Positions 303 through 54,277 of a stretch of DNA of 64,000 nt are shown here, piece by piece (position 1 is the stretch's first letter; every line of letters begins with the position of its first letter). Below the pieces are notes generated by a model. That model searched no databases and had not been told where the DNA came from. It worked only from the letters and a program-made list of their open reading frames with translations. Position numbers and translations under genes: made by a program. Source of the DNA: a virus; the IMG/VR virus record IMGVR_UViG_3300035670_000177, positions 3,212 through 67,211 of that record; one strand, written 5' to 3'.

Positions 303-515
303 TTAACAAGTCACTTGGACTTTAGACCAATCAAAATCACTAAGCTTTGGAATACTAGGAGTTACAGTAATTTGATTTCGATCAGGAGTCTTCTTATCAA
401 ACACAAGCTTCAAATGATCTTTAATAATCTGCCATTGCTTTTCTGAGATAGTGTCAGTGTTAGCAATTTCTACGAAGCCTTGGAGCCAGTATGTGAAATC
501 CGTTGCATTATTCAT
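303..515 (-). CDS. hypothetical phage protein
   Basis: 70 aa ORF; ATGA overlap with the upstream HNH gene; GAGG SD. Confidence 0.75.
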   Translation of the reverse strand: MNNATDFTYWLQGFVEIANTDTISEKQWQIIKDHLKLVFDKKTPDRNQITVTPSIPKLSDFDWSKVQVTC

Positions 516-946
516 CTTGATGCCTCTAAATATTCTATAGTCTTTAGGAGGAGATTAGTATCATCTTTAAACTTACCAATACCTATATTGCACTCACAGC
601 ATAACAAACCTCTAACCACGCCTGTTGTATGACAATGGTCTACATTCAGAGTGTATAGAGGCGAGTCTCCACATATTGCACAAGAGTAGTTTTGAGAAAC
701 TAACATTTCATCATAGTCTTCTTGTGTCATACCATAGTTTTTAAAAAGATGATGTCCCTTTGCCGTAGCACGCATCTTCTCTTTTACTTCAGGATTATTC
801 TCGTATCGCATCTTTGTTTCTATTCTTCTACAAATCTTGCATTTCAGCCGTCTACGCTTCTCTGGTCTGTTCTTAGACCTATATTCACCAAAATAATCCA
901 AGGGTAAACACAAATTACAAGTGTTGCAAACTCTAGTTTCTTCCAA
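512..946 (-). CDS. endonuclease VII-type HNH homing endonuclease
   Basis: CAICG...LNVDHCH..G.VRGLLC..CN..IG motif; N-terminal CxxC pairs; TTG start with GAGG SD. Confidence 0.9.
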   Translation of the reverse strand: MEETRVCNTCNLCLPLDYFGEYRSKNRPEKRRRLKCKICRRIETKMRYENNPEVKEKMRATAKGHHLFKNYGMTQEDYDEMLVSQNYSCAICGDSPLYTLNVDHCHTTGVVRGLLCCECNIGIGKFKDDTNLLLKTIEYLEASR

Positions 947-1115: not shown

Positions 1116-1144
1116 AGTATAACACCATTTATCAAACAGATCAA
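1116..1144 (-). promoter_or_regulatory. sigma70 promoter
   Basis: TTGATC-17-TATACT with extended TG. Confidence 0.7.
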
Positions 1145-1362
1145 GCACTTTCTTCATTTTCATAAGAAATACTTATGAATTCAAACTCTGTAAGATTTTG
1201 GAACTGATATTCATGCACTTCACAACTGTGAGGGTTGTAAGCAACACCTCTACAATCATGACACATATCTTCAGGAAGTCCGTCAGGACGACTCATCATC
1301 AGTTCTGTATCTGTTAGAAAGCAATCACATGCAATACATTTACTCATATTCCTCTTCATCAC
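1141..1362 (-). CDS. small Cys-rich (zinc-finger-like) protein
   Basis: CxxC...CxxC; the likely start is the third Met (MSKCIAC). Confidence 0.65.
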   Translation of the reverse strand: MMKRNMSKCIACDCFLTDTELMMSRPDGLPEDMCHDCRGVAYNPHSCEVHEYQFQNLTEFEFISISYENEESA

Positions 1363-1789: not shown

Positions 1790-2194
1790 TCAGAGAAATT
1801 TATTTTCTTCTTTATCAAAAATAGAGGATCCATTCCATTTAAAAGCCTTCTCTGTTTTCGATTCAAACATGTACCAAAACTCTAGTGCCAGTTGTTCATC
1901 AAAATCTTGTTTTGAATTTTTACCGTAGGTCTTGTTGTATAAAGAAGAAAGAGATTCTTTATCCCAAAGCAGAACGGCTTTCTCCATAGCATATGCTTGA
2001 TCTTCTGTTAGATTCTCAACAACCTTAAAAACATTGAATTTATATTTCCCATGTTTAAACAAATCCCTGTTCAGTTCAGCACAACTACTTCTTCCCGATG
2101 TGCAGTGTAACAATCTGTCCTTCTTCCCTTTTCCTACATAAACCAAAAGATCATTAACTACACAAGCATAAACATAATATTCTTTATTTATCAT
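1790..2194 (-). CDS. GIY-YIG family nuclease
   Basis: YYVY...VYVGKG...R..H, E in 'AYAMEK', and 'LYN' match the GIY-YIG motifs. Confidence 0.8.
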   Translation of the reverse strand: MINKEYYVYACVVNDLLVYVGKGKKDRLLHCTSGRSSCAELNRDLFKHGKYKFNVFKVVENLTEDQAYAMEKAVLLWDKESLSSLYNKTYGKNSKQDFDEQLALEFWYMFESKTEKAFKWNGSSIFDKEENKFL

Positions 2195-2259
2195 CTTTAT
2201 TATCTTATTTACTATTATTTCTTTAGTTATCTAATATTATTATTACTTAATCTTATATA

Positions 2260-2704
2260 CTTCCAAACTGAGTTCAGATAAGAACTTCAGATAAAAGAAA
2301 CCCTTACCCAGCCATACAAAGCTAACGCTCTGCCTAAGACTGAGTAGAGTACCTTATCTGATAGCTTTTATCTGCCTCTATCCGTTGTGAATAGATCTTC
2401 CAAACTTGAGACGAGATTAAGAGAGCCTTAGCTCTGTGGTCTGCACGGATAACACAGCCACCTTCAGGACAATGACACGTTCAAAGCATTGTCTTGCTAC
2501 ATTGCATATCGCACAGCCTTGACGGGCTGACAGGGAGGTAGTAGCTTTCAGTTTACCTTGCAGACTGTCCCATCACTCACAGTAGTCCGCTTGTTTAAGC
2601 TTATCGCTGCCAGGTCATGTAGGAAGCTTGTGTTTCCACAACACCACCACACTAGCCGACCAACATGCCGATTCACACAAAGCAGTGAACTCTTTTTAAC
2701 TAAC
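2260..2704 (-). ncRNA. structured RNA element copy 1 (promoter-driven, upstream of GIY-YIG)
   Basis: ORF-free; many stems; G-U pairs in the 3' hairpin (2300-2350) favour the minus strand; shares a core motif with 37532-37560. Confidence 0.65.
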
Positions 2705-2710
2705 CCATCT

Positions 2711-2739
2711 ATTATGACAGCTTTTTAAATAGATAGCAA
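2711..2739 (-). promoter_or_regulatory. extended -10 sigma70 promoter for RNA copy 1
   Basis: TTGCTA-17-CATAAT, TGn, followed by AGATG. Confidence 0.7.
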
Positions 2740-2804
2740 GTCTTTTAAATCTTTTTATCACCTTACCTATATAATTCTACCATGATAAGCTTATTTTGTA
2801 TAGT

Positions 2805-2932: not shown

Positions 2933-3427
2933 ATGAAATTCTTAGATTGGCTTTTTGGAGGACAATCACAACCTAAACGGGTTGTTAGGAATCCAGAAGA
3001 TAAAGAGCTTGTGATGGTAGGAGAACCTGTAATCTCCTTTGTAAAATGTTTGAAATCTGACCCTAAACGGTTTAAGGTTTCCACTTATTCAGAGATGTAC
3101 GCAGAGAACTCAGGAAAATGGCCACCTATCTACACTTGGATGCGTAATCGTTGGGGTCATACTGGTTACTATAAGCTTACTGATCGCAAACAAGGAGATG
3201 AATATTATGCCATTATTCACAAAGGCGAAATCTACAGTGTAAGTGGTTTAAAGTTCTCTCTGAATGCTTGGGAAAGACGATATGTCATGAAAGCTTTCTA
3301 TGGATTTCGACAAAAAGCCAAAGACCGTAAATTAGAAATGGTTCGACGTAAAATGGATAAGATTCGAGAAGAGCAAGAGAGTATTGGGAAACTAGAACGT
3401 GCAAAACTAATGGAGAAATTTCAATGA
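2933..3427 (+). CDS. hypothetical protein
   Basis: 164 aa; GGAGG SD. Confidence 0.8.
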   Translation: MKFLDWLFGGQSQPKRVVRNPEDKELVMVGEPVISFVKCLKSDPKRFKVSTYSEMYAENSGKWPPIYTWMRNRWGHTGYYKLTDRKQGDEYYAIIHKGEIYSVSGLKFSLNAWERRYVMKAFYGFRQKAKDRKLEMVRRKMDKIREEQESIGKLERAKLMEKFQ

Positions 3428-10939: not shown

Positions 10940-11927
10940 ATGTCTAAAGAAATCAAAGTAACTGTTGTTGAAGCTTCTGGGATTGATGATTATAGTGACG
11001 ATGAAGGCTTTACTTTCAAACATCCAGCAAAATACTATTTTGTAAACGCATTGGGTCAATATATTTATATTCATACTCGTGATATGAAAGTTGCTGTCGA
11101 ATACATTAAAGAAAACTATGATGGCCGTTACACTGTTCGTACCGCTAAGGAAAGCAAATCGGATAATAATTATACCTGCACTGGAACAACATCGAGGCGG
11201 GGTACTGCTAGCCACCTTCGACCAACTGTTTAGGAGGATATATGAGAGTAAAAATAGAAAAGGTTCTGGATTTACTGAGACAGCTTGAAGAAATTAATAA
11301 ATACCCCATTGATCAAATTGAGTGGATTTACAATAACGAGTCTGTTAAAGTTAGCAAGAAAGAAATTGAAGACTGGAAATTCACTGGGCTTTCTAACGTG
11401 AGTTTTATAGAAATTATTCTGACAGGAGAACTTGAAAAGTGCGTAACAAAGACTTAATCAAAAAGCTAAGTATGTTTGACCCAGAAGGGATTGTAGTATT
11501 GCGAAATTCAGAAGGCAATTCACCTACACTCCATAACGTAGAACAAGAGGAAGGTGTTCACGACCTTGATGGTTGGGATTTGCTTGGTGATTGGAGGAAT
11601 GTAAAAGAAATGGAAGATTTTTATGGATCTTCTGATAGTGATCCTCTAGCTTTCGTTAGTCTTATTGTATTGTCTTAAGGGGGTTGTATGCTATTAGTTC
11701 TTCTTTACCTAAGTATCGGTTTTGTTTTTGGCTGCTTCGTGGTTTACAAAATGCTAGATGTTTGGGGTTGGGATGATCTGCTTGAGGATTTCAATAAGCG
11801 TCTAAAAGGTAAACATACAGAACTTAACGTATTTAAGTTGTCATTTCCAATTTTCACAGTTTCGACAATTACATTTACTTGGCCTTACTTTATTTACTTG
11901 TTTGTAAATAAGAAGTATTTCAAATGA
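10940..11927 (+). other. small hypothetical CDSs (10940-11233, 11242-11457, 11439-11678, 11688-11927 membrane)
   Basis: SD-preceded tandem ORFs. Confidence 0.7.
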
Positions 11928-12340
11928 AAGACATTTACAAACTAGCCTTGATGGATATGGCTTGCAGATTTGGAGAGACATCGTTTGCAACAAGGCTTAA
12001 AGTTGGAAGTTTGATTTATAAAAATGGCTCAGTAATATCGTTAGGTTGTAACGGCCAGCCTCCTGGGTGGGAAACAGAAGTTTGTGAAGATGAAAATGGT
12101 AATACGTTACCAACTGTAAGGCATTCTGAAGATGCGGCGCTACAGAAGCTTTGGAGAAGCACAGAAACCGCTGAAGGTGCCGAAATATTCATTTCACACA
12201 AACCGTGTTTGGCTTGCAGTATCAAAATTGTTACAGCAGGAATTAATAAAGTCTACTACCGTCACGAATACCGCTGTAACAATGGTTTAGAATATCTATT
12301 GAAGCATAACGTTTCTATTGAGAGAATTAATCAAAATTAA
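11924..12340 (+). CDS. dCMP deaminase
   Basis: R.KVG..I...G.NG.P.G...C; HSE..A; PCLAC zinc motif. Confidence 0.9.
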   Translation: MKDIYKLALMDMACRFGETSFATRLKVGSLIYKNGSVISLGCNGQPPGWETEVCEDENGNTLPTVRHSEDAALQKLWRSTETAEGAEIFISHKPCLACSIKIVTAGINKVYYRHEYRCNNGLEYLLKHNVSIERINQN

Positions 12341-26708: not shown

Positions 26709-29700
26709 TCTTCTACCCCTATACCTAAAGACCGTAAAACTTCGACGACTTCTTGTCTGTAGTAAGGGAACAGGAATGGTAGCTTAACTTTGACAGATTT
26801 TCTAGAGGATACCCAAGCTTCATATGCTTTTTGCGTACTATAAAATTTATATGAGCCATCTTCAAGTAACTTAAGATTAAAAACTCCTTCTCCTTTTGCC
26901 CACTCTTCAAAAGAGTTCTTGATTGCATCTTCCATCACAACGCCTCCACATAATTACGTTTAAAACCCCTCACAACATTATTCTTACGCTTATTTGTCTT
27001 TTGTTTATATATGATGTCTCTTTCATATTCGTGGTTACACGAATTACTAGAAGGCCGAATAGCTTCAAAAGAGATGTGTGTTTCATTCATGTTGTGAAGC
27101 ATTGCGTAGTTGATTTTCATTTAGCTGTCCTTGTTCATCCAATTTGCAATAGCTTCGATCCAACCAGCATTATGCATTCCATAAGAAAACATACCAAACC
27201 CGATACCTACAAATGGTGCACAAGCAATAGCCCATGCACTGCCCAACAGCATGAAGAACATACTTGAGGATAAAACAAGAATCAATGCAGGAATAACTAG
27301 CCACTTAGTTTTTGATTTCATTTCAATTCTCCACAACACTAAGGCTTCTCATATAAAGAAAGGCTTCTTGATAAGAGTCAAACCATTCAATCCCGGCGTA
27401 CAACCAACCTGCGGGGGTCATAACCCAATCTTTAACGATCCAAAAGCCATCTTCCTCAACGATTTCCATCTGAAGCCTCACCATTAATTTTAGATTGCCA
27501 CACACCATTTTCCCGCCAAAGCTTGTAGCTCTGTTTTATGCTGGCAGCTAAGGCTTCCCTCTGCCAAGTTTGAATGCTTTGTAGAGCTTTGTCAAGACTT
27601 TTCATGATCATTTATCCTTAAGGAAGCAATGCGTGGCATTCGCCAGTTTGGATGTAGACAGCACGTTGCTGGAATGTAAAAGTGTGGTCCCATTCACCAG
27701 CTTCAATGTCGTCCATCCGTTTTAGCGTTGATTCAACATAACTATTAATATCATTCACCTTAACATCTCCACTGATAGCTTCATCAATGCATGCTTGAGT
27801 ATTATCAAGGAACCATTGACGCGTTTGCATAATAGTTTCTTTTGTGATGTTCATAGTGAATTCCTTTTAAAAGACTAATTTTGCTGCTGTTAGGGCTATT
27901 GTGCTGCAAACCACGAAGTATGTAAATTGATGATTATTAATCCAATCTGCCACTTTCGATAGGCTCAGACTATTACTAGGCTTTTTAACGTCTTTAAAAC
28001 GATTTCCCTCTATAGCAGTACGTTTGCTTGTCTTAGAGCTTTTCTCGCTTTTTACGTGTGTTTTTCCCAAAGAAATAGCTTCTTCGTCTTCGATTTCAAA
28101 GGGAGCACGTACAGATTTTGCTTTAGCTAACAGAATTTCAGCTTTAGCTCGTTTAGAGCTAATCACAGAGAGAAGCATAGAATACTCATCAATGTCGATG
28201 TTTCCTTTTTGATATTCAGCTACCAATTCTTTCATTTGATTTGTAAGCGTAGTGACACGCTTAGCTTGTGGAAGAATCCGATCTTGAATGCTGACAGATG
28301 GTTTCTTTTTAGGCTTACGAGCTTCAATAGTTTCATCACTGAAAGCACCAACACGAGCACGGCCTTGTTTGTCGAATGTAGCGATGTCAACAGATTTATC
28401 ACCACGATATTGACCATTACCACCTGACCATTGATTGTGGTCGCTGGCTGCATCAATCCACGAAGGCTGAATGTACATGCGGGTCATGATAAACCTCCAA
28501 AAACAAGAAAACCCTAAGACTTGTGATCATCTTAGGGCTTCATAAGATTTGTGTCAACCTTTATTTTGTTCTGGGTAGATACAAATCGAGAAGATTTTAC
28601 CCAAACCGGCAGACCATGCATATTCAATGCGAAGGTAGCTCATACCACCAAGCTCAACAGGATAGAAGTCAAAATGACTGTAAACACCACGACCAGCTTT
28701 CAGCATCTCTTGTGACAAGGAAGCATGGCAACGTTTCACACCATCCTCTTCCCATTCTTTGACCATCATGCCAGTTTCTTTTGCAACTTCAAGAAAGCGA
28801 GTAAGCCGTTTTTCGTAGGAGTTAACAGGGTTTTTGCTGTAGATGATCTGTGCAGTAGAGAAGTTGCGCATGATTTCGACTCCGTTGATTTGCTTTGATT
28901 CTTGGATGTTTGATCCGGTATGTGCTAATCTTAGCCGGTCTTCATAGTCGTGTCAACATATGTTTCCAGTAAATATTACGAATTACTGCTACAAAACTCT
29001 ATACCAAGGTGCGTAACAGATAAATTACCATTTGTCAACCTTACTTTGAATTCGTTGTTATGATTTGGTCTGCTTTCAATTTTTGACGTAAGCAGAGCAG
29101 CCAAAGGCTCATCTACGACTTCTCCGAAATGCTCCTCAAGGAATTCAGAAATCACCACCTTAAAATAGTAACGCCTCTTCATATCTTGATTCATTTAAAT
29201 ACTTCCACATACATCTGAGATTCTTTATCAAATGTCCAGCTTCTACCTAGCACTGTATAATCCGCTTTATCGTCTGCGAAAGCTTTAGCACCAACGCCAC
29301 AAGCTTTACGAAGCTCTAGTATTTCAGACGAGGCGTAGCGACCAGAGAGGCTTGCCCTCTCGACCTCTTGAGCACACACATTGAAATAGCTATTAAACAA
29401 AGCCTCCTTTTGTTTTGTATGTGCTGTGTACCGGTCGTATGTTCCGAAGGCTGTAAACGAAGTGGCAGCCAACAGTGCTGAGATTGATAGGAGTTTATTC
29501 AATTGAGGGCCTCCTTGATATTACTAATAAAGTTAGACTTCTCTTCCGGCGTCAGATCACAAGAAAGTTCTTCAACCAAAGTCATGACAAGCCATTGGGT
29601 AAACTCCACTTCTGCAATAATCCCATCTGCAATTCGTACAGCCTCTACGAAACTGACTTGATCCATATCAGACAAGGCAAAAGCCAGATCATTAACAGAA

Positions 29701-35990: not shown

Positions 35991-36729
35991 TCGTTTTCTC
36001 CTTTTATATTCTTCAATATTTTTGTTCCTAGCTTCTCGACAAGCTCTTTCTAAACCAGCGCCCACACGAGTCTATTCCTTCCCATCATGATTCTTAGGTC
36101 CATACTGATGAATGACCACTTGTTTACCTTTGTTCTTTTCATTGATGTAGATATCAATTGCATAGTATGCAGACTCAATATCTTTGTAATATTCATACCA
36201 ACCATGATTGATGTTAACCCAAAGAAAACCAAACTTCTTCATTTGAGGGTAATACCAATCACCCACCTGTTTAATTCGATATCTCATAGCCTAACTCCAC
36301 AATATCCAGCCACAATTATAATGACAAGTGCTAGACAGAAAGCCATAACACCGTAAGTCAACCCTTTAATCTCTTGTCTGCCAAAGATGTCAAATCCTGA
36401 TGCGATAGAGCACACACCAAACACAATACAAATGAAAGCTGCGATGTAAATAAAATCAGCCATCATTCACTCCAGTAAGTCAAGTCTTCAAGGACGGCTT
36501 CAACAGGATCATATTCAGAACGTTCCTCATACAAAGCTTCTGCAAATCCATAGGCTGTTACAGTGTCAACGCCTTTAGAATGATATGCGTTGAAGGCTTT
36601 AGCAATCCACATAATGCGTTCAACGTCTTGTTTGGTCATCATTTTGTGTAGGTTGGTCATTTCAGAATCCCCGAATAGTTTTGATGTGCTTATCATAGGA
36701 CAAAAGAAAAGGGCCGTCAAGGCCCCATT

Positions 36730-37407
36730 TTAAAAATTGTAGCTTTTTGATTTCTTACGCTGTAGGTTTACCTTGTTCAGCACAATGCGGTACTCTGCAA
36801 CCTCGTGATGGTATTCAACAAATTTATTCAGAAGCTCTTGATCCTCCATAATCCAAACCGTTGCATTGTCACCAGGATGATGAATAACTAGAGATTCGCT
36901 AGAAATGTTGTGAATGTCGATAAAATCCTTGACAATTTCATTGAACTGTTTAGGGTAGTGGTCAATGTGACTGTCTTTCTTCCTGACCTTTAAGTTTGTT
37001 TCTGGACAAATCACGTAACCTTTCGAATCACCGAACTCATTAAAATAGGTATCTTTATAATCAATTGTCTGATCGTTTATAGCTGCACGGAAGATATCTT
37101 TAATCTTACCTTCTTTTGATTGTGAACTAATTGCTTTCACATAACTAAAATCAGTTACAGAACCATCAGCACGAAGTACATAGAATTGACGATTACGAGG
37201 ATTGATTAGGCAAGTACGAACACCAATCTTATACCCATCTCCTTGAGTCTTTTCATCATAACAATCATGCATTTTAAGGACATCGTTAATTACTTCAAAC
37301 CACTCACCATACAACTCAGAATTAAGTTTTGCATTGTTTAGTACAAACTTACAATAATTCTTTAGTGTTTGTTTAGTTTTAAATTCCATACCACCAGCTT
37401 CTACCAT
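36730..37407 (-). CDS. DCL (DUF3223) domain protein with an HNH-like C-terminal domain
   Basis: H....K..G...I.V...R.F...R.DG...DFSY.K (DCL signature); C-terminal CPET...HIDH.P...YH...N. Confidence 0.75.
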   Translation of the reverse strand: MVEAGGMEFKTKQTLKNYCKFVLNNAKLNSELYGEWFEVINDVLKMHDCYDEKTQGDGYKIGVRTCLINPRNRQFYVLRADGSVTDFSYVKAISSQSKEGKIKDIFRAAINDQTIDYKDTYFNEFGDSKGYVICPETNLKVRKKDSHIDHYPKQFNEIVKDFIDIHNISSESLVIHHPGDNATVWIMEDQELLNKFVEYHHEVAEYRIVLNKVNLQRKKSKSYNF

Positions 37408-37484
37408 CTCTTTACTCTCTTTTATATTTACTTAGGTTTGTTTTACATCTTTATTTGTTTACTTATTCTTTATATCTAATACAT

Positions 37485-37859
37485 ATCGTCTTAGATTAAA
37501 GCTTAGGAAAGATAGATTTATCCCAGCAATTGCCATACAAGAGTATCCTCTTGCCTAGACAAAAGCTTAATCTATCTCTCCTAAGCTGTCAACATCTCAT
37601 CGTCTTGAGTTGTCGCCTAGGCCATCATTAGGACGGAAGCTACCTGTTTGTAAGCATAGCCAAGATTGCTCATCATTCCACACGAAAAAGATTGACGTGC
37701 GTCACCGATCCCCTATAATGAGCTTCGATTCAGGTTGGCCGAGGATCTTCCCTCTTCATAGCCTTTAAGACAGAGCCGGTGAGTGATAGCTAATTAGCTA
37801 GCCCTAAAACGGGCAAATGACATTTCTCTCTCTGTCCGATACGCCATAAAACAACGTAG
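37485..37859 (-). ncRNA. structured RNA element copy 2 (promoter-driven, upstream of DCL/HNH)
   Basis: ORF-free; many stems; 19 bp basal stem 37500-37587 with G-U on minus; shares a core motif with copy 1. Confidence 0.65.
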
Positions 37860-37865
37860 GCATCT

Positions 37866-37893
37866 ATTCTATCACGAATCACCTAGAATACAA
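37866..37893 (-). promoter_or_regulatory. extended -10 sigma70 promoter for RNA copy 2
   Basis: TTGTAT-16-TAGAAT, TGn, followed by AGATG. Confidence 0.65.
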
Positions 37894-37988
37894 GAGATAA
37901 ATATTCTTTTTATTCAGCCTTTAGGAGATATATTCTCTCTTATTTACACAATCTATCAACCCTACACCATCCTATTGAAAATCTTAAT

Positions 37989-38016
37989 TAGACTCCTAAG
38001 CCAAGAGGTGTAGAAT
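37989..38016 (+). promoter_or_regulatory. sigma70 promoter
   Basis: TAGACT-16-TAGAAT upstream of the CDS at 38053. Confidence 0.55.
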
Positions 38017-38052
38017 AGAACGTATCGAAAACACAAACACGGAGATATACAG

Positions 38053-54059: not shown

Positions 54060-54277
54060 GTCAAAGTAAAAGACAAAGCTTGATTGAAACCATTTCCAAT
54101 ACTTCAATAGGTATGATAGGATCATGGCTTATAACAATGATGTGTTTGATGTTCTTTACAAGTCCAGTTGGTATTGCTACGAGCACAACGATTTTATGCA
54201 CTGTCTGGTCGGTTGGAAGAGGATATTGCCTAAGACGTTATTTCAATAACATGCAACAGAAACAAGTAATTAATTAA
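54056..54277 (+). CDS. small membrane protein
   Basis: QSK.QSLIE...N..IG...R.Y..RR.FN; two transmembrane segments. Confidence 0.75.
   Translation: MSQSKRQSLIETISNTSIGMIGSWLITMMCLMFFTSPVGIATSTTILCTVWSVGRGYCLRRYFNNMQQKQVIN

Follow-up and report, generated by a model that had tools for sequence, protein, structure and literature searches.

Two long gaps between divergent genes in a 64,000-nucleotide (nt) stretch of viral DNA (positions 3,212 to 67,211 of IMG/VR record IMGVR_UViG_3300035670_000177; hereafter, the window) each encode one member of a family of large (~290-450 nt), multi-helix, pseudoknotted RNAs. These RNAs are transcribed by host-type RNA polymerase from a predicted extended -10 promoter, and we are highly confident that the family is real and previously undescribed. 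A first-pass annotation of the window had presented the gaps as two copies of one cassette, in which a promoter, a structured RNA, an A-rich tract and a nuclease gene follow one another. The common architecture holds, but the RNAs are two subtypes of one family, type 1 in copy 1 and type 2 in copy 2 (Table 1).

Each gap encodes a large pseudoknotted RNA

The structure proposed for both gaps was recovered when they were folded, with minimum free energy z-scores against shuffled sequences of -2.41 for copy 1 and -3.67 for copy 2. Covarying homologues, on which the annotation had made its proposal depend, were found for both types and assembled into a type 1 alignment of 12 distinct sequences (A2) and a type 2 alignment of six (A3). 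The consensus energy computed by RNAalifold is lower on the given strand than on the reverse complement (-107.1 versus -56.4 for type 1, -50.5 versus -43.9 for type 2), in agreement with the strand specificity claimed earlier. In type 1, RNAalifold predicts 119 pairs, with 97.2% of cells paired, and 38 of these pairs carry changes on both sides, compared to 17.3 +/- 2.2 in column shuffles, none of which reaches this number in 500 trials, and to 5-11 in slid controls. Similarly, 33 of the 73 type 2 pairs are changed on both sides, compared to 14.9 +/- 2.6 after shuffling (0/500 reach the observed value) and 5-10 in slid controls. Two additional type 1 helices, UAUCCGU/ACGGAUA and GUCUC/GAGGC, cross each other and hence form a pseudoknot. 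The first has three compensatory variants and the second two, and in 15/15 sequences neither helix contains more than one mismatch. A further long-range helix, AACUGA/UCAGUU (columns 123-128 with 429-434), was not counted, being broken in the most divergent sequence and devoid of real covariation.

The internal loop of the long 3' hairpin is conserved (GUC-U(U/A)AG-GCA ... UG-UAU-GGC) and presumably resembles the 11-nt GAAA tetraloop receptor (CCUAAG/UAUGG); GNRA loops are present elsewhere in several members. We treat types 1 and 2 as one family because locus L159 combines a type 1-like 5' domain with a type 2 core, and because R1, a 3' hairpin profile that combines both types, matches exactly the two window copies (expectation values, E, in Table 1). 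R1 retains only seven base pairs and is thus mostly a sequence profile, and RNAalifold applied to the mixed alignment gave the apical stem only. The shared apex noticed in the first pass, TAGGCA-N12-TGTATGGC, has two exact matches in the window and no more, 2311-2336 and 37532-37557, each on the minus strand, with ~0.25 chance matches expected and 2/100 shuffles reaching two.

It is scarcely credible that the gaps contain no RNA and instead reflect chance similarity or a missed protein-coding gene. A 'hypothetical protein' is indeed annotated over the RNA in some GenBank records, but stop-free runs extend to 40-87 codons at most, depending on the homologue, the compensatory changes exceed every control, and conservation is far above that of the neighbouring sequences. 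The coding sequence vBPpSSYP_113 that overlies the RNA in Pseudomonas phage vB_PpS_SYP (hereafter SYP; L144, 2401-2646), labelled 'hypothetical protein' as in several Pakpunavirus records, is probably spurious.

The suggestion that the RNA family is undescribed agrees with the strong covariation, with Rfam and with the literature. No match at gathering score was obtained anywhere in the window with Rfam 15 (4227 models, among them group I/II introns, RNase P, tmRNA, HEARO, GOLLD, ROOL and GIR1). In E-value mode, only chance-level weak matches were returned over both gaps, and nothing at the RNA in eight homologous loci. No description of the RNA was found in the portions of the literature that were covered, which include parts of an ONT-cappable-seq study of Pseudomonas phages (10.1101/2023.10.13.562163), of the PAK_P3/PAK_P4 comparison (PMC5563952), of a catalogue of 8,495 candidate phage RNAs of 29-151 nt (PMC10690425) and of the Minerva preprint; supplementary tables, which lie outside this coverage, may list the transcript or a short fragment of it.

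Relatives were found by pattern scans on the shared apex in viral, metagenome and genome collections. Pattern matches were kept only if they had the apical stem and flanks that agreed, and L123-L125, L120, L021, L054, L130, L145 and L165-L173 were discarded as chance. Members are present in IMG/VR and metagenome contigs and in two Pseudomonas chromosomes. With the window RNAs as query, blastn matched only Nitrincola phage 1M3-16 and SYP, in both cases within a gap between divergent genes. The polymerase of the window phage lies near those of Pakpunavirus-type Pseudomonas phages (59% identity), and R1 identified homologues in the phages ventosus, vB_PF_Y1-MI (Y1-MI) and PAK_P1, the latter with two copies. 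Copy A of PAK_P1 lies in a 474-nt divergent gap ahead of a small Zn-ribbon gene, and copy B in another, of 398 nt, which precedes the polymerase gene by ~6 kb. When the PAK_P1 RNA served as blastn query, 179 phage records were retrieved, 123 of them Pakpunavirus-type at at least 99% identity and 56 at 60-90%, including phages of Pseudomonas syringae and fluorescens; the annotation beneath these matches is 'none' or 'hypothetical protein'. In the RNA-seq-annotated PAK_P4 record, 'promoter_11' is followed by 350 unannotated bases and then by the same Zn-ribbon gene, with no non-coding RNA (ncRNA) feature. At the VCM locus (L193), the motif search found nothing and the blast match spans only the 5' part of the RNA. 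Genomes G008 and G009 gave no R1 match, both being fragments that are uninformative on copy 1.

The two chromosomal members reside in homologous islands of ~10 kb, one in Pseudomonas brassicacearum (G001; L156, 527-9927) and the other in G002 (L157). Both islands comprise a large serine recombinase, a type 1-like RNA, a long AT-rich tract, unknown small proteins and a resolvase. Their Zn-ribbon proteins (461 and 464 amino acids, aa) are 57% identical, and searches of the island proteins against Pfam, PHROGs and PADLOC returned nothing except the two serine recombinases. A metagenome contig with a type 1-like RNA (L138) also carries, at 1-80 on the minus strand, a bacterial signal recognition particle RNA (35.8 bits, just below gathering score), so this contig is probably not a phage but part of a bacterial chromosome that harbours an island.

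Table 1. Coordinates of the features of the two RNA loci in the window
Feature	Position	Strand	Evidence or remark
Copy 1 promoter	2711..2739	-	TTGCTA-17-CATAAT with TG, consensus scan; predicted start ~2704-2709
Type 1 structured RNA, copy 1	2260..2704	-	Predicted start to end of 3' repeat; alignment A2 and RNAalifold
Internal X, copy 1	2397..2410	-	CTCAAGTTTGGAAG
Long 3' hairpin, copy 1	2270..2381	-	Conserved internal loop, core 2311-2340; R1 match E 1e-22
3' X, copy 1	2260..2272	-	CTCAGTTTGGAAG; hairpin foot
AT-rich, purine-rich spacer, copy 1	2195..2259	-	Homing endonuclease genes inserted here in relatives
134-aa ORF	1790..2194	-	GIY-YIG-like, sub-threshold; read as passenger homing endonuclease
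Copy 2 promoter	37866..37893	-	TTGTAT-16-TAGAAT with TG, read by eye from sequence
Type 2 structured RNA, copy 2	37485..37860	-	Alignment A3 and RNAalifold
Internal X, copy 2	37599..37609	-	CTCAAGACGAT; in hairpin loop
Long 3' hairpin, copy 2	37489..37595	-	Conserved loop, core 37532-37560; R1 match E 1.7e-12
3' X, copy 2	37485..37494	-	CTAAGACGAT
A-rich spacer, copy 2	37408..37484	-	Sequence
225-aa ORF	36730..37407	-	N-terminal DUF3223 domain
Terminator-like hairpin	36710..36726	-	Closes copy-2 unit: promoter, RNA, ORF, terminator

A leader RNA with a repeat that covaries in identity

In each RNA, a segment located upstream of the long 3' hairpin, which we call X, recurs exactly at the 3' foot of this hairpin: the two copies are identical, not complementary. 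The repeat is present in 27/27 sequences in which both sites can be located. In 21/21 sequences the two copies match exactly over at least 8 nt, with fixed positions and distances, compared to an average of 5.8 nt in shuffles, 1.0% of which reach 9 nt; at six further loci of cultured phages, it measures 8-12 nt. Type 1 members carry the pair CUCA-A-GUU[..]GRAAG and CUCA-GUU[..]GRAA, in which X reads UGGAAG, GGAAG, GAAAG, AGAAG, AGGAAG or UUGAUGG depending on the lineage. In the Nitrincola phage, X reads AUCUUCAU. Type 2 members combine a hairpin loop, CUCA-X-AUGAG, with UCUA-X-AU, the variants of X being AAGACGAU, AACAGAAU, AACACAAU, AACAAAAU, AGGAAUAU, AGUGAGAC, AUCUGCAUG, AUCCCCAUGAGA, AGCUUCAUGAG and AACGUAAU. 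Among near-identical RNAs, L110 and L076 differ from L159 by the same G-to-C change in both X copies. The covariation of X thus preserves identity and not complementarity. A search for the complement of X, exact or tolerating G-U pairs, within 1.5 kb in 13 loci revealed no consistent site, and the only complements with at most one mismatch in the whole window, at 27644-27654 and 54230-54239 (both plus strand), are not compelling. Within the type 2 alignment, the best candidate columns, in the apical stem, fit 4/6 sequences; L159 and L127 do not fit, and we judged this candidate a chance match. In several members, both X copies can lie in hairpin loops, as judged by eye. PAK_P1 copy B (L191, 1110-1150), phage JHP and L194 carry an AT-rich palindromic insertion in the internal X hairpin, so that X is found there twice internally and once at the 3' foot.

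Several observations define where this RNA sits in its transcription unit. The extended -10 promoter followed by AGATG reported in the first pass is indeed present upstream of both RNA copies on the minus strand. The copy 2 promoter is missing from the consensus-scan list and its -35 is weak, yet its -10/AGATG block is the same as in copy 1. Since TGnnAnAATnGATG has four exact occurrences in the window, including the copy 1 instance at 2706-2719, it represents a normal, general promoter type of this phage. No terminator-like site was detected by a scan between the RNA and the next open reading frame (ORF) of either window copy; a terminator comes only after the ORF, in the copy-2 cassette and in L076 and L159. 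With a promoter upstream and no terminator before the ORF, the RNA constitutes the leader, or 5' part, of its transcription unit. In both the window and PAK_P1, each of the two copies heads an operon at a divergent junction. The 3' X lies a few bases ahead of the next Shine-Dalgarno sequence in PAK_P1 copy B, SYP and Y1-MI, and the next ORF begins within ~10-30 nt in SYP and PAK_P1 copy B. The A-rich tract described earlier is AT-rich: the 100 nt past the 3' repeat are 85% (copy 1) and 74% (copy 2) AT, for a locus average of ~61%, and 68-85% AT in 17/17 loci measured, for whole-locus values of 46-64%.

Contigs from RNA libraries give a weak hint that the RNA accumulates. They span 2347-2695, 2404-2629 and 2428-2675, and cover neither the spacer nor most of the ORF; from the uncovered parts (1790-2003, 2180-2346 and 2726-2881) no inference is drawn. 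One contig, X15, starts at 2695 and crosses the internal X uncut, and the end of another, which comes from a relative, falls at 2404, within the internal X. On the opposite strand, a strong promoter-like site at 37692-37719 (TTGACG-16-TATAAT, 11/12 matches) is directed into the 5' third of RNA copy 2. By eye, L002 and L127 are the only two of the six type 2 sequences that retain its -35, and no antisense promoter was found in copy 1. The T4-late-like motif TATAAAT, considered as a candidate element after the 3' repeat, is not enriched (27 occurrences versus 28.5 expected).

Variable neighbours of a conserved RNA

Both RNAs had been described as followed by a nuclease gene, and as the partner or guide of that nuclease or the carrier of a hitch-hiking endonuclease. 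The evidence for a nuclease is weaker than first stated in both cassettes: the 134-aa product is GIY-YIG-like at sub-threshold level only, and the 225-aa product shows only DUF3223. The former scores 14.0 bits against PF01541 (E 0.063), below the cut-off of 22.6 needed for membership of the GIY-YIG family, and E 0.028 against PF22945; a YVY...VYVGKG motif was recognised by eye only. We then tabulated the downstream ORFs of loci with enough flanking sequence, with domains assigned by Pfam scan unless stated to be by eye. HNH proteins follow the RNA in L139 (with NUMOD4), L068 and L037 (past a 77-aa ORF), and L132 carries a homologue of the L068 protein by eye. CapR-domain proteins are found in L018 and SYP, a MUG113/T5orf172 protein in L127, a GIY-YIG-like protein in window copy 1, with a similar C-terminal domain in L055 by eye, a DUF3223 protein in window copy 2, and a 324-aa ORF, recorded by length only, in the L076 group and L159. 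No downstream nuclease is present in L034, L129, L142, L126, the Pseudomonas islands, and PAK_P1 A and B.

The comparison of these loci exposes an insertion site. L129 and L034 display the empty site, in which the RNA is followed by an A-rich spacer of ~110 nt and a Zn-ribbon gene with its own promoter. The space between RNA and Zn-ribbon gene is filled by an endonuclease ORF in L018 and L055. Thus, at the same RNA/Zn-ribbon site, an HNH, CapR-domain, T5orf172 or GIY-YIG-like gene is found, or none. Free-standing homing endonucleases, such as seg and mob of T4, show presence/absence polymorphism, and differing families occur at one site next to a conserved sequence. Varying or absent nucleases at one conserved site are therefore most likely free-standing homing endonucleases. 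The hitch-hiking part of the earlier proposal is in line with these variable or absent downstream genes, and we consider it very probable that the nucleases are interchangeable passengers beside a conserved RNA. Between L159 and L076, the RNAs show eight differences (~97-98% identity), the adjacent ORFs are roughly 85% identical by eye, and the flanks beyond the promoter-RNA-ORF-terminator unit are unrelated. This divergence indicates that the RNA is selected much more strongly than its passenger, and that the unit can occupy different contexts.

The partner or guide function is not supported by this comparison, as the same RNA stands beside unrelated nuclease families or none. Nuclease-like ORFs adjoin the RNA in many loci, and part of the RNA is matched by nearby DNA, a trait of guide systems, but the neighbours are unrelated small nucleases or are missing (PAK_P1 A and B, L034, L129, L142, L126 and the islands), the matching DNA is the element's own, which would make the system self-targeting, and no IscB-, TnpB- or IS110-type protein and no HEARO match was found. 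We regard a guide or partner role as highly improbable. The likeness to the IscB omega-RNA/HEARO and IS110 bridge RNA systems is limited to a structured RNA located beside a nuclease or recombinase gene, with a loop that covaries with nearby DNA. By contrast with these systems, the defining proteins are absent, the neighbours being products of 134 and 225 aa without IscB domains (RuvC and HNH, ~400-500 aa), RF02033 gives no match, and the partner genes are interchangeable or missing.

Two further genes lie downstream of copy 1 in the window. The small Zn-ribbon protein (MRCxCC... or MSKCIACDC...) is encoded at 1141-1362 (minus strand) in the window and is found in L129, L034, L018, L055 and as gp176 of PAK_P1. 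Its gene is the conserved downstream gene of the RNA locus across the group, and possesses its own extended -10 promoter in type 1 relatives. An endonuclease VII-type ORF of the same leftward operon lies at 512-946 (minus strand; Pfam E 5e-23); in ventosus and Y1-MI, endonuclease VII genes come directly after the polymerase gene.

Possible functions of the RNA

The reading we prefer is that the folded leader RNA would act in cis, at its own locus. Its internal X would pair with the template DNA strand of the 3' X just behind the polymerase, and this contact would form an R-loop toehold at the 3' foot. A contact with its own template is proposed because, by construction, the only complement of X that exists is the template of the 3' copy or an antisense transcript. 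From an operon-head position like that of nut and put, the RNA could govern read-through and how the downstream genes are expressed; alternatively, it could prime DNA synthesis, as ColE1 RNA II does. Such a contact between X and its own DNA is a tentative proposal, and cis control of downstream expression is a similarly doubtful one. As a whole, this explanation, which blends a well-supported identity with a weakly supported mechanism, could equally well prove right or wrong. The boldest form, that of a new RNA class reading its own gene, in which the R-loop would serve as a portable RNA-defined replication origin or polymerase switch, and the module would move with homing endonucleases from phage to phage and to islands, is speculative and rather improbable.

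Several observations weigh against this cis-acting leader. In L129 and L034, the nuclease-free type 1 alleles, the promoter of the next gene makes that gene independent of the leader, and the downstream genes are mutually unrelated, which would be unexpected if the RNA regulated one particular gene. Compact tertiary folds that have invariant unpaired bases are commoner in ribozymes or in protein- or ligand-binding RNAs than in primers, and the RNA-DNA contact, priming and antitermination are inferred proposals. The two PAK_P1 copies share the X core AUCUGCAU, which would also fit a common partner acting in trans. Five complete relatives carry one RNA copy each and not two, and PAK_P3 gave no R1 match, which leaves a link between the family and the published ncRNA1 and ncRNA2 of this phage, as presented in the part of the literature covered, unsupported. 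In G009, whose PolA is 97% identical, the copy-2 slot holds a different non-coding stretch of ~400 nt with the same promoter type, indicating that copy 2 is replaceable. Finally, the RNA-library contigs are assemblies, which cannot give starts, ends or strand, and DNA carry-over in them is possible. The G009 stretch itself (L180, ~11880-12240, minus strand; syntenic with window 36653-38030) lies behind an TGTTAGAATAGATGG promoter, looks structured and contains a 12-nt direct repeat, AAACGCCCUACA, together with a matching complement, GGGCGUUU; it may represent a second class of leader RNA for this slot.

A dedicated replication origin, as raised by the first-pass annotation, would use the RNA as a primer similar to ColE1 RNA II, with the loop X seeding a persistent hybrid at the 3' X, the AT tract opening and the phage Pol A-type polymerase extending the processed RNA. 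The order of promoter, folded RNA of ~300-450 nt and AT-rich tract in 17/17 loci measured, the covarying direct repeat that lacks an RNA complement, the family-A polymerase and primase-helicase encoded by the phage, the cumulative GC-skew minima at both loci and the integrase that adjoins the RNA in both ~10 kb Pseudomonas islands are all consistent with this function. However, the skew minima coincide with the switch of gene orientation and are thus non-discriminating, SYP and PAK_P1 copy B leave no unwinding tract before the next ORF, the type 2 cassette occupies different genomic contexts in L159 and L076, and only 2/6 type 2 sequences (L002 and L127) show, by eye, an antisense promoter like that of RNA I. 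The single-copy relatives, the lack of a detectable member in PAK_P3 and the replaced slot of G009 argue in the same direction, and we consider an origin unlikely. In ColE1 RNA II, a G-loop contacts a C-stretch, and an upstream RNA segment has the sequence of the downstream non-template DNA, so that it can pair with the template. Our RNA resembles RNA II, whose primer mechanism we take from the part of PMC5043065 that was available, in that a host-polymerase promoter precedes a folded RNA of several hundred nt which would act at its own 3' end; extension in ColE1 relies on a Pol I-type polymerase, and the window phage has a family-A polymerase. It differs from RNA II by the lack of any sequence relation, by its pseudoknot, by a much higher conservation, by the ORFs that directly follow it and by the scarcity of RNA I-type antisense promoters.

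The RNA could instead be processed from the leader and act in trans, for instance in host take-over or as an anti-defence decoy, its two identical X loops binding two copies of one complementary nucleic acid. The very high conservation (the 123 records at at least 99% identity, and an RNA with fewer differences than its neighbouring ORF between L159 and L076, ~97-98% identity versus roughly 85% by eye), a slot whose content can be replaced among close relatives, a typical trait of accessory early loci, RNA-library contigs that lie over the RNA and not over most of the following ORF, the X core shared by the PAK_P1 copies and the possible location of both X copies in loops in several members would fit such a role. 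It is weakened by the lack of a terminator or defined 3' end, and by the variation of X among close relatives, which requires a covarying partner; searches of the window, allowing up to one mismatch, and of 1.5 kb around 13 loci yielded none. A trans-acting RNA is, in our estimate, no likelier than an origin. Less likely still is a self-processing RNA, or ribozyme, in which the X copies would be equivalent reaction sites that release or rejoin the ~110-135 nt between them, making the element an intron-like harbour for homing endonuclease genes. The complex pseudoknotted fold with invariant unpaired blocks, the loop that we assume to resemble a tetraloop receptor, the association with several endonuclease families, as in group I introns, and the contig of a relative that ends within the internal X, at 2404, point to this possibility; by contrast, contig X15 runs over the internal X uncut, and no Rfam intron or ribozyme family matches. 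Moreover, there are no flanking exons, since a promoter and a divergent gene lie upstream. A link to the RtcB ligase of this phage (15633-16877, plus strand; Pfam E 9.5e-126) was dropped, as RtcB was detected in 0/5 of the other RNA-carrying genomes tested.

Other known systems share single traits with the family. Like group I introns and the lariat-capping ribozyme, it places a complex RNA with putative tertiary-contact motifs directly upstream of an endonuclease ORF from several unrelated families; unlike group I introns, it has neither exons nor an intron-family match, many members lack an endonuclease, and the ORF lies outside the RNA. The put sites of HK022 are ~70 nt long and consist of two stem-loops. 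Like put and the nut sites of lambda, our RNA occurs in two copies per genome (in the window and in PAK_P1), as a promoter-proximal leader at the head of an operon and at a divergent junction, but it measures 290-450 nt, shows no sequence or Rfam relation to them and is alike in position only. GOLLD and ROOL, which are also large, highly structured phage-carried RNAs, usually lie beside tRNA genes. The family differs from both by the absence of an Rfam match, by its architecture and by its promoter-proximal leader position, and no tRNA was found in the window.

Taken together, these results correct a tempting misreading of the two loci, in that the nucleases are neighbours and not partners of the RNA. 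Pakpunavirus-type phages, which are in wide use as candidates for therapy against Pseudomonas aeruginosa, carry the RNA in almost invariant form, and the records inspected either leave it unannotated or mislabel it as a 'hypothetical protein'. Laboratory phages such as PAK_P1 and PAK_P4 have the same RNA. Given such strong selection, a pseudoknotted RNA of 300-450 nt very likely matters for infection, and the identity-preserving covariation of X constitutes an unusual signature that offers a direct experimental handle. If the RNA does contact its own DNA, it would represent a new way of marking an origin or of controlling a polymerase; otherwise, it still ranks among the larger orphan RNA classes in phages.

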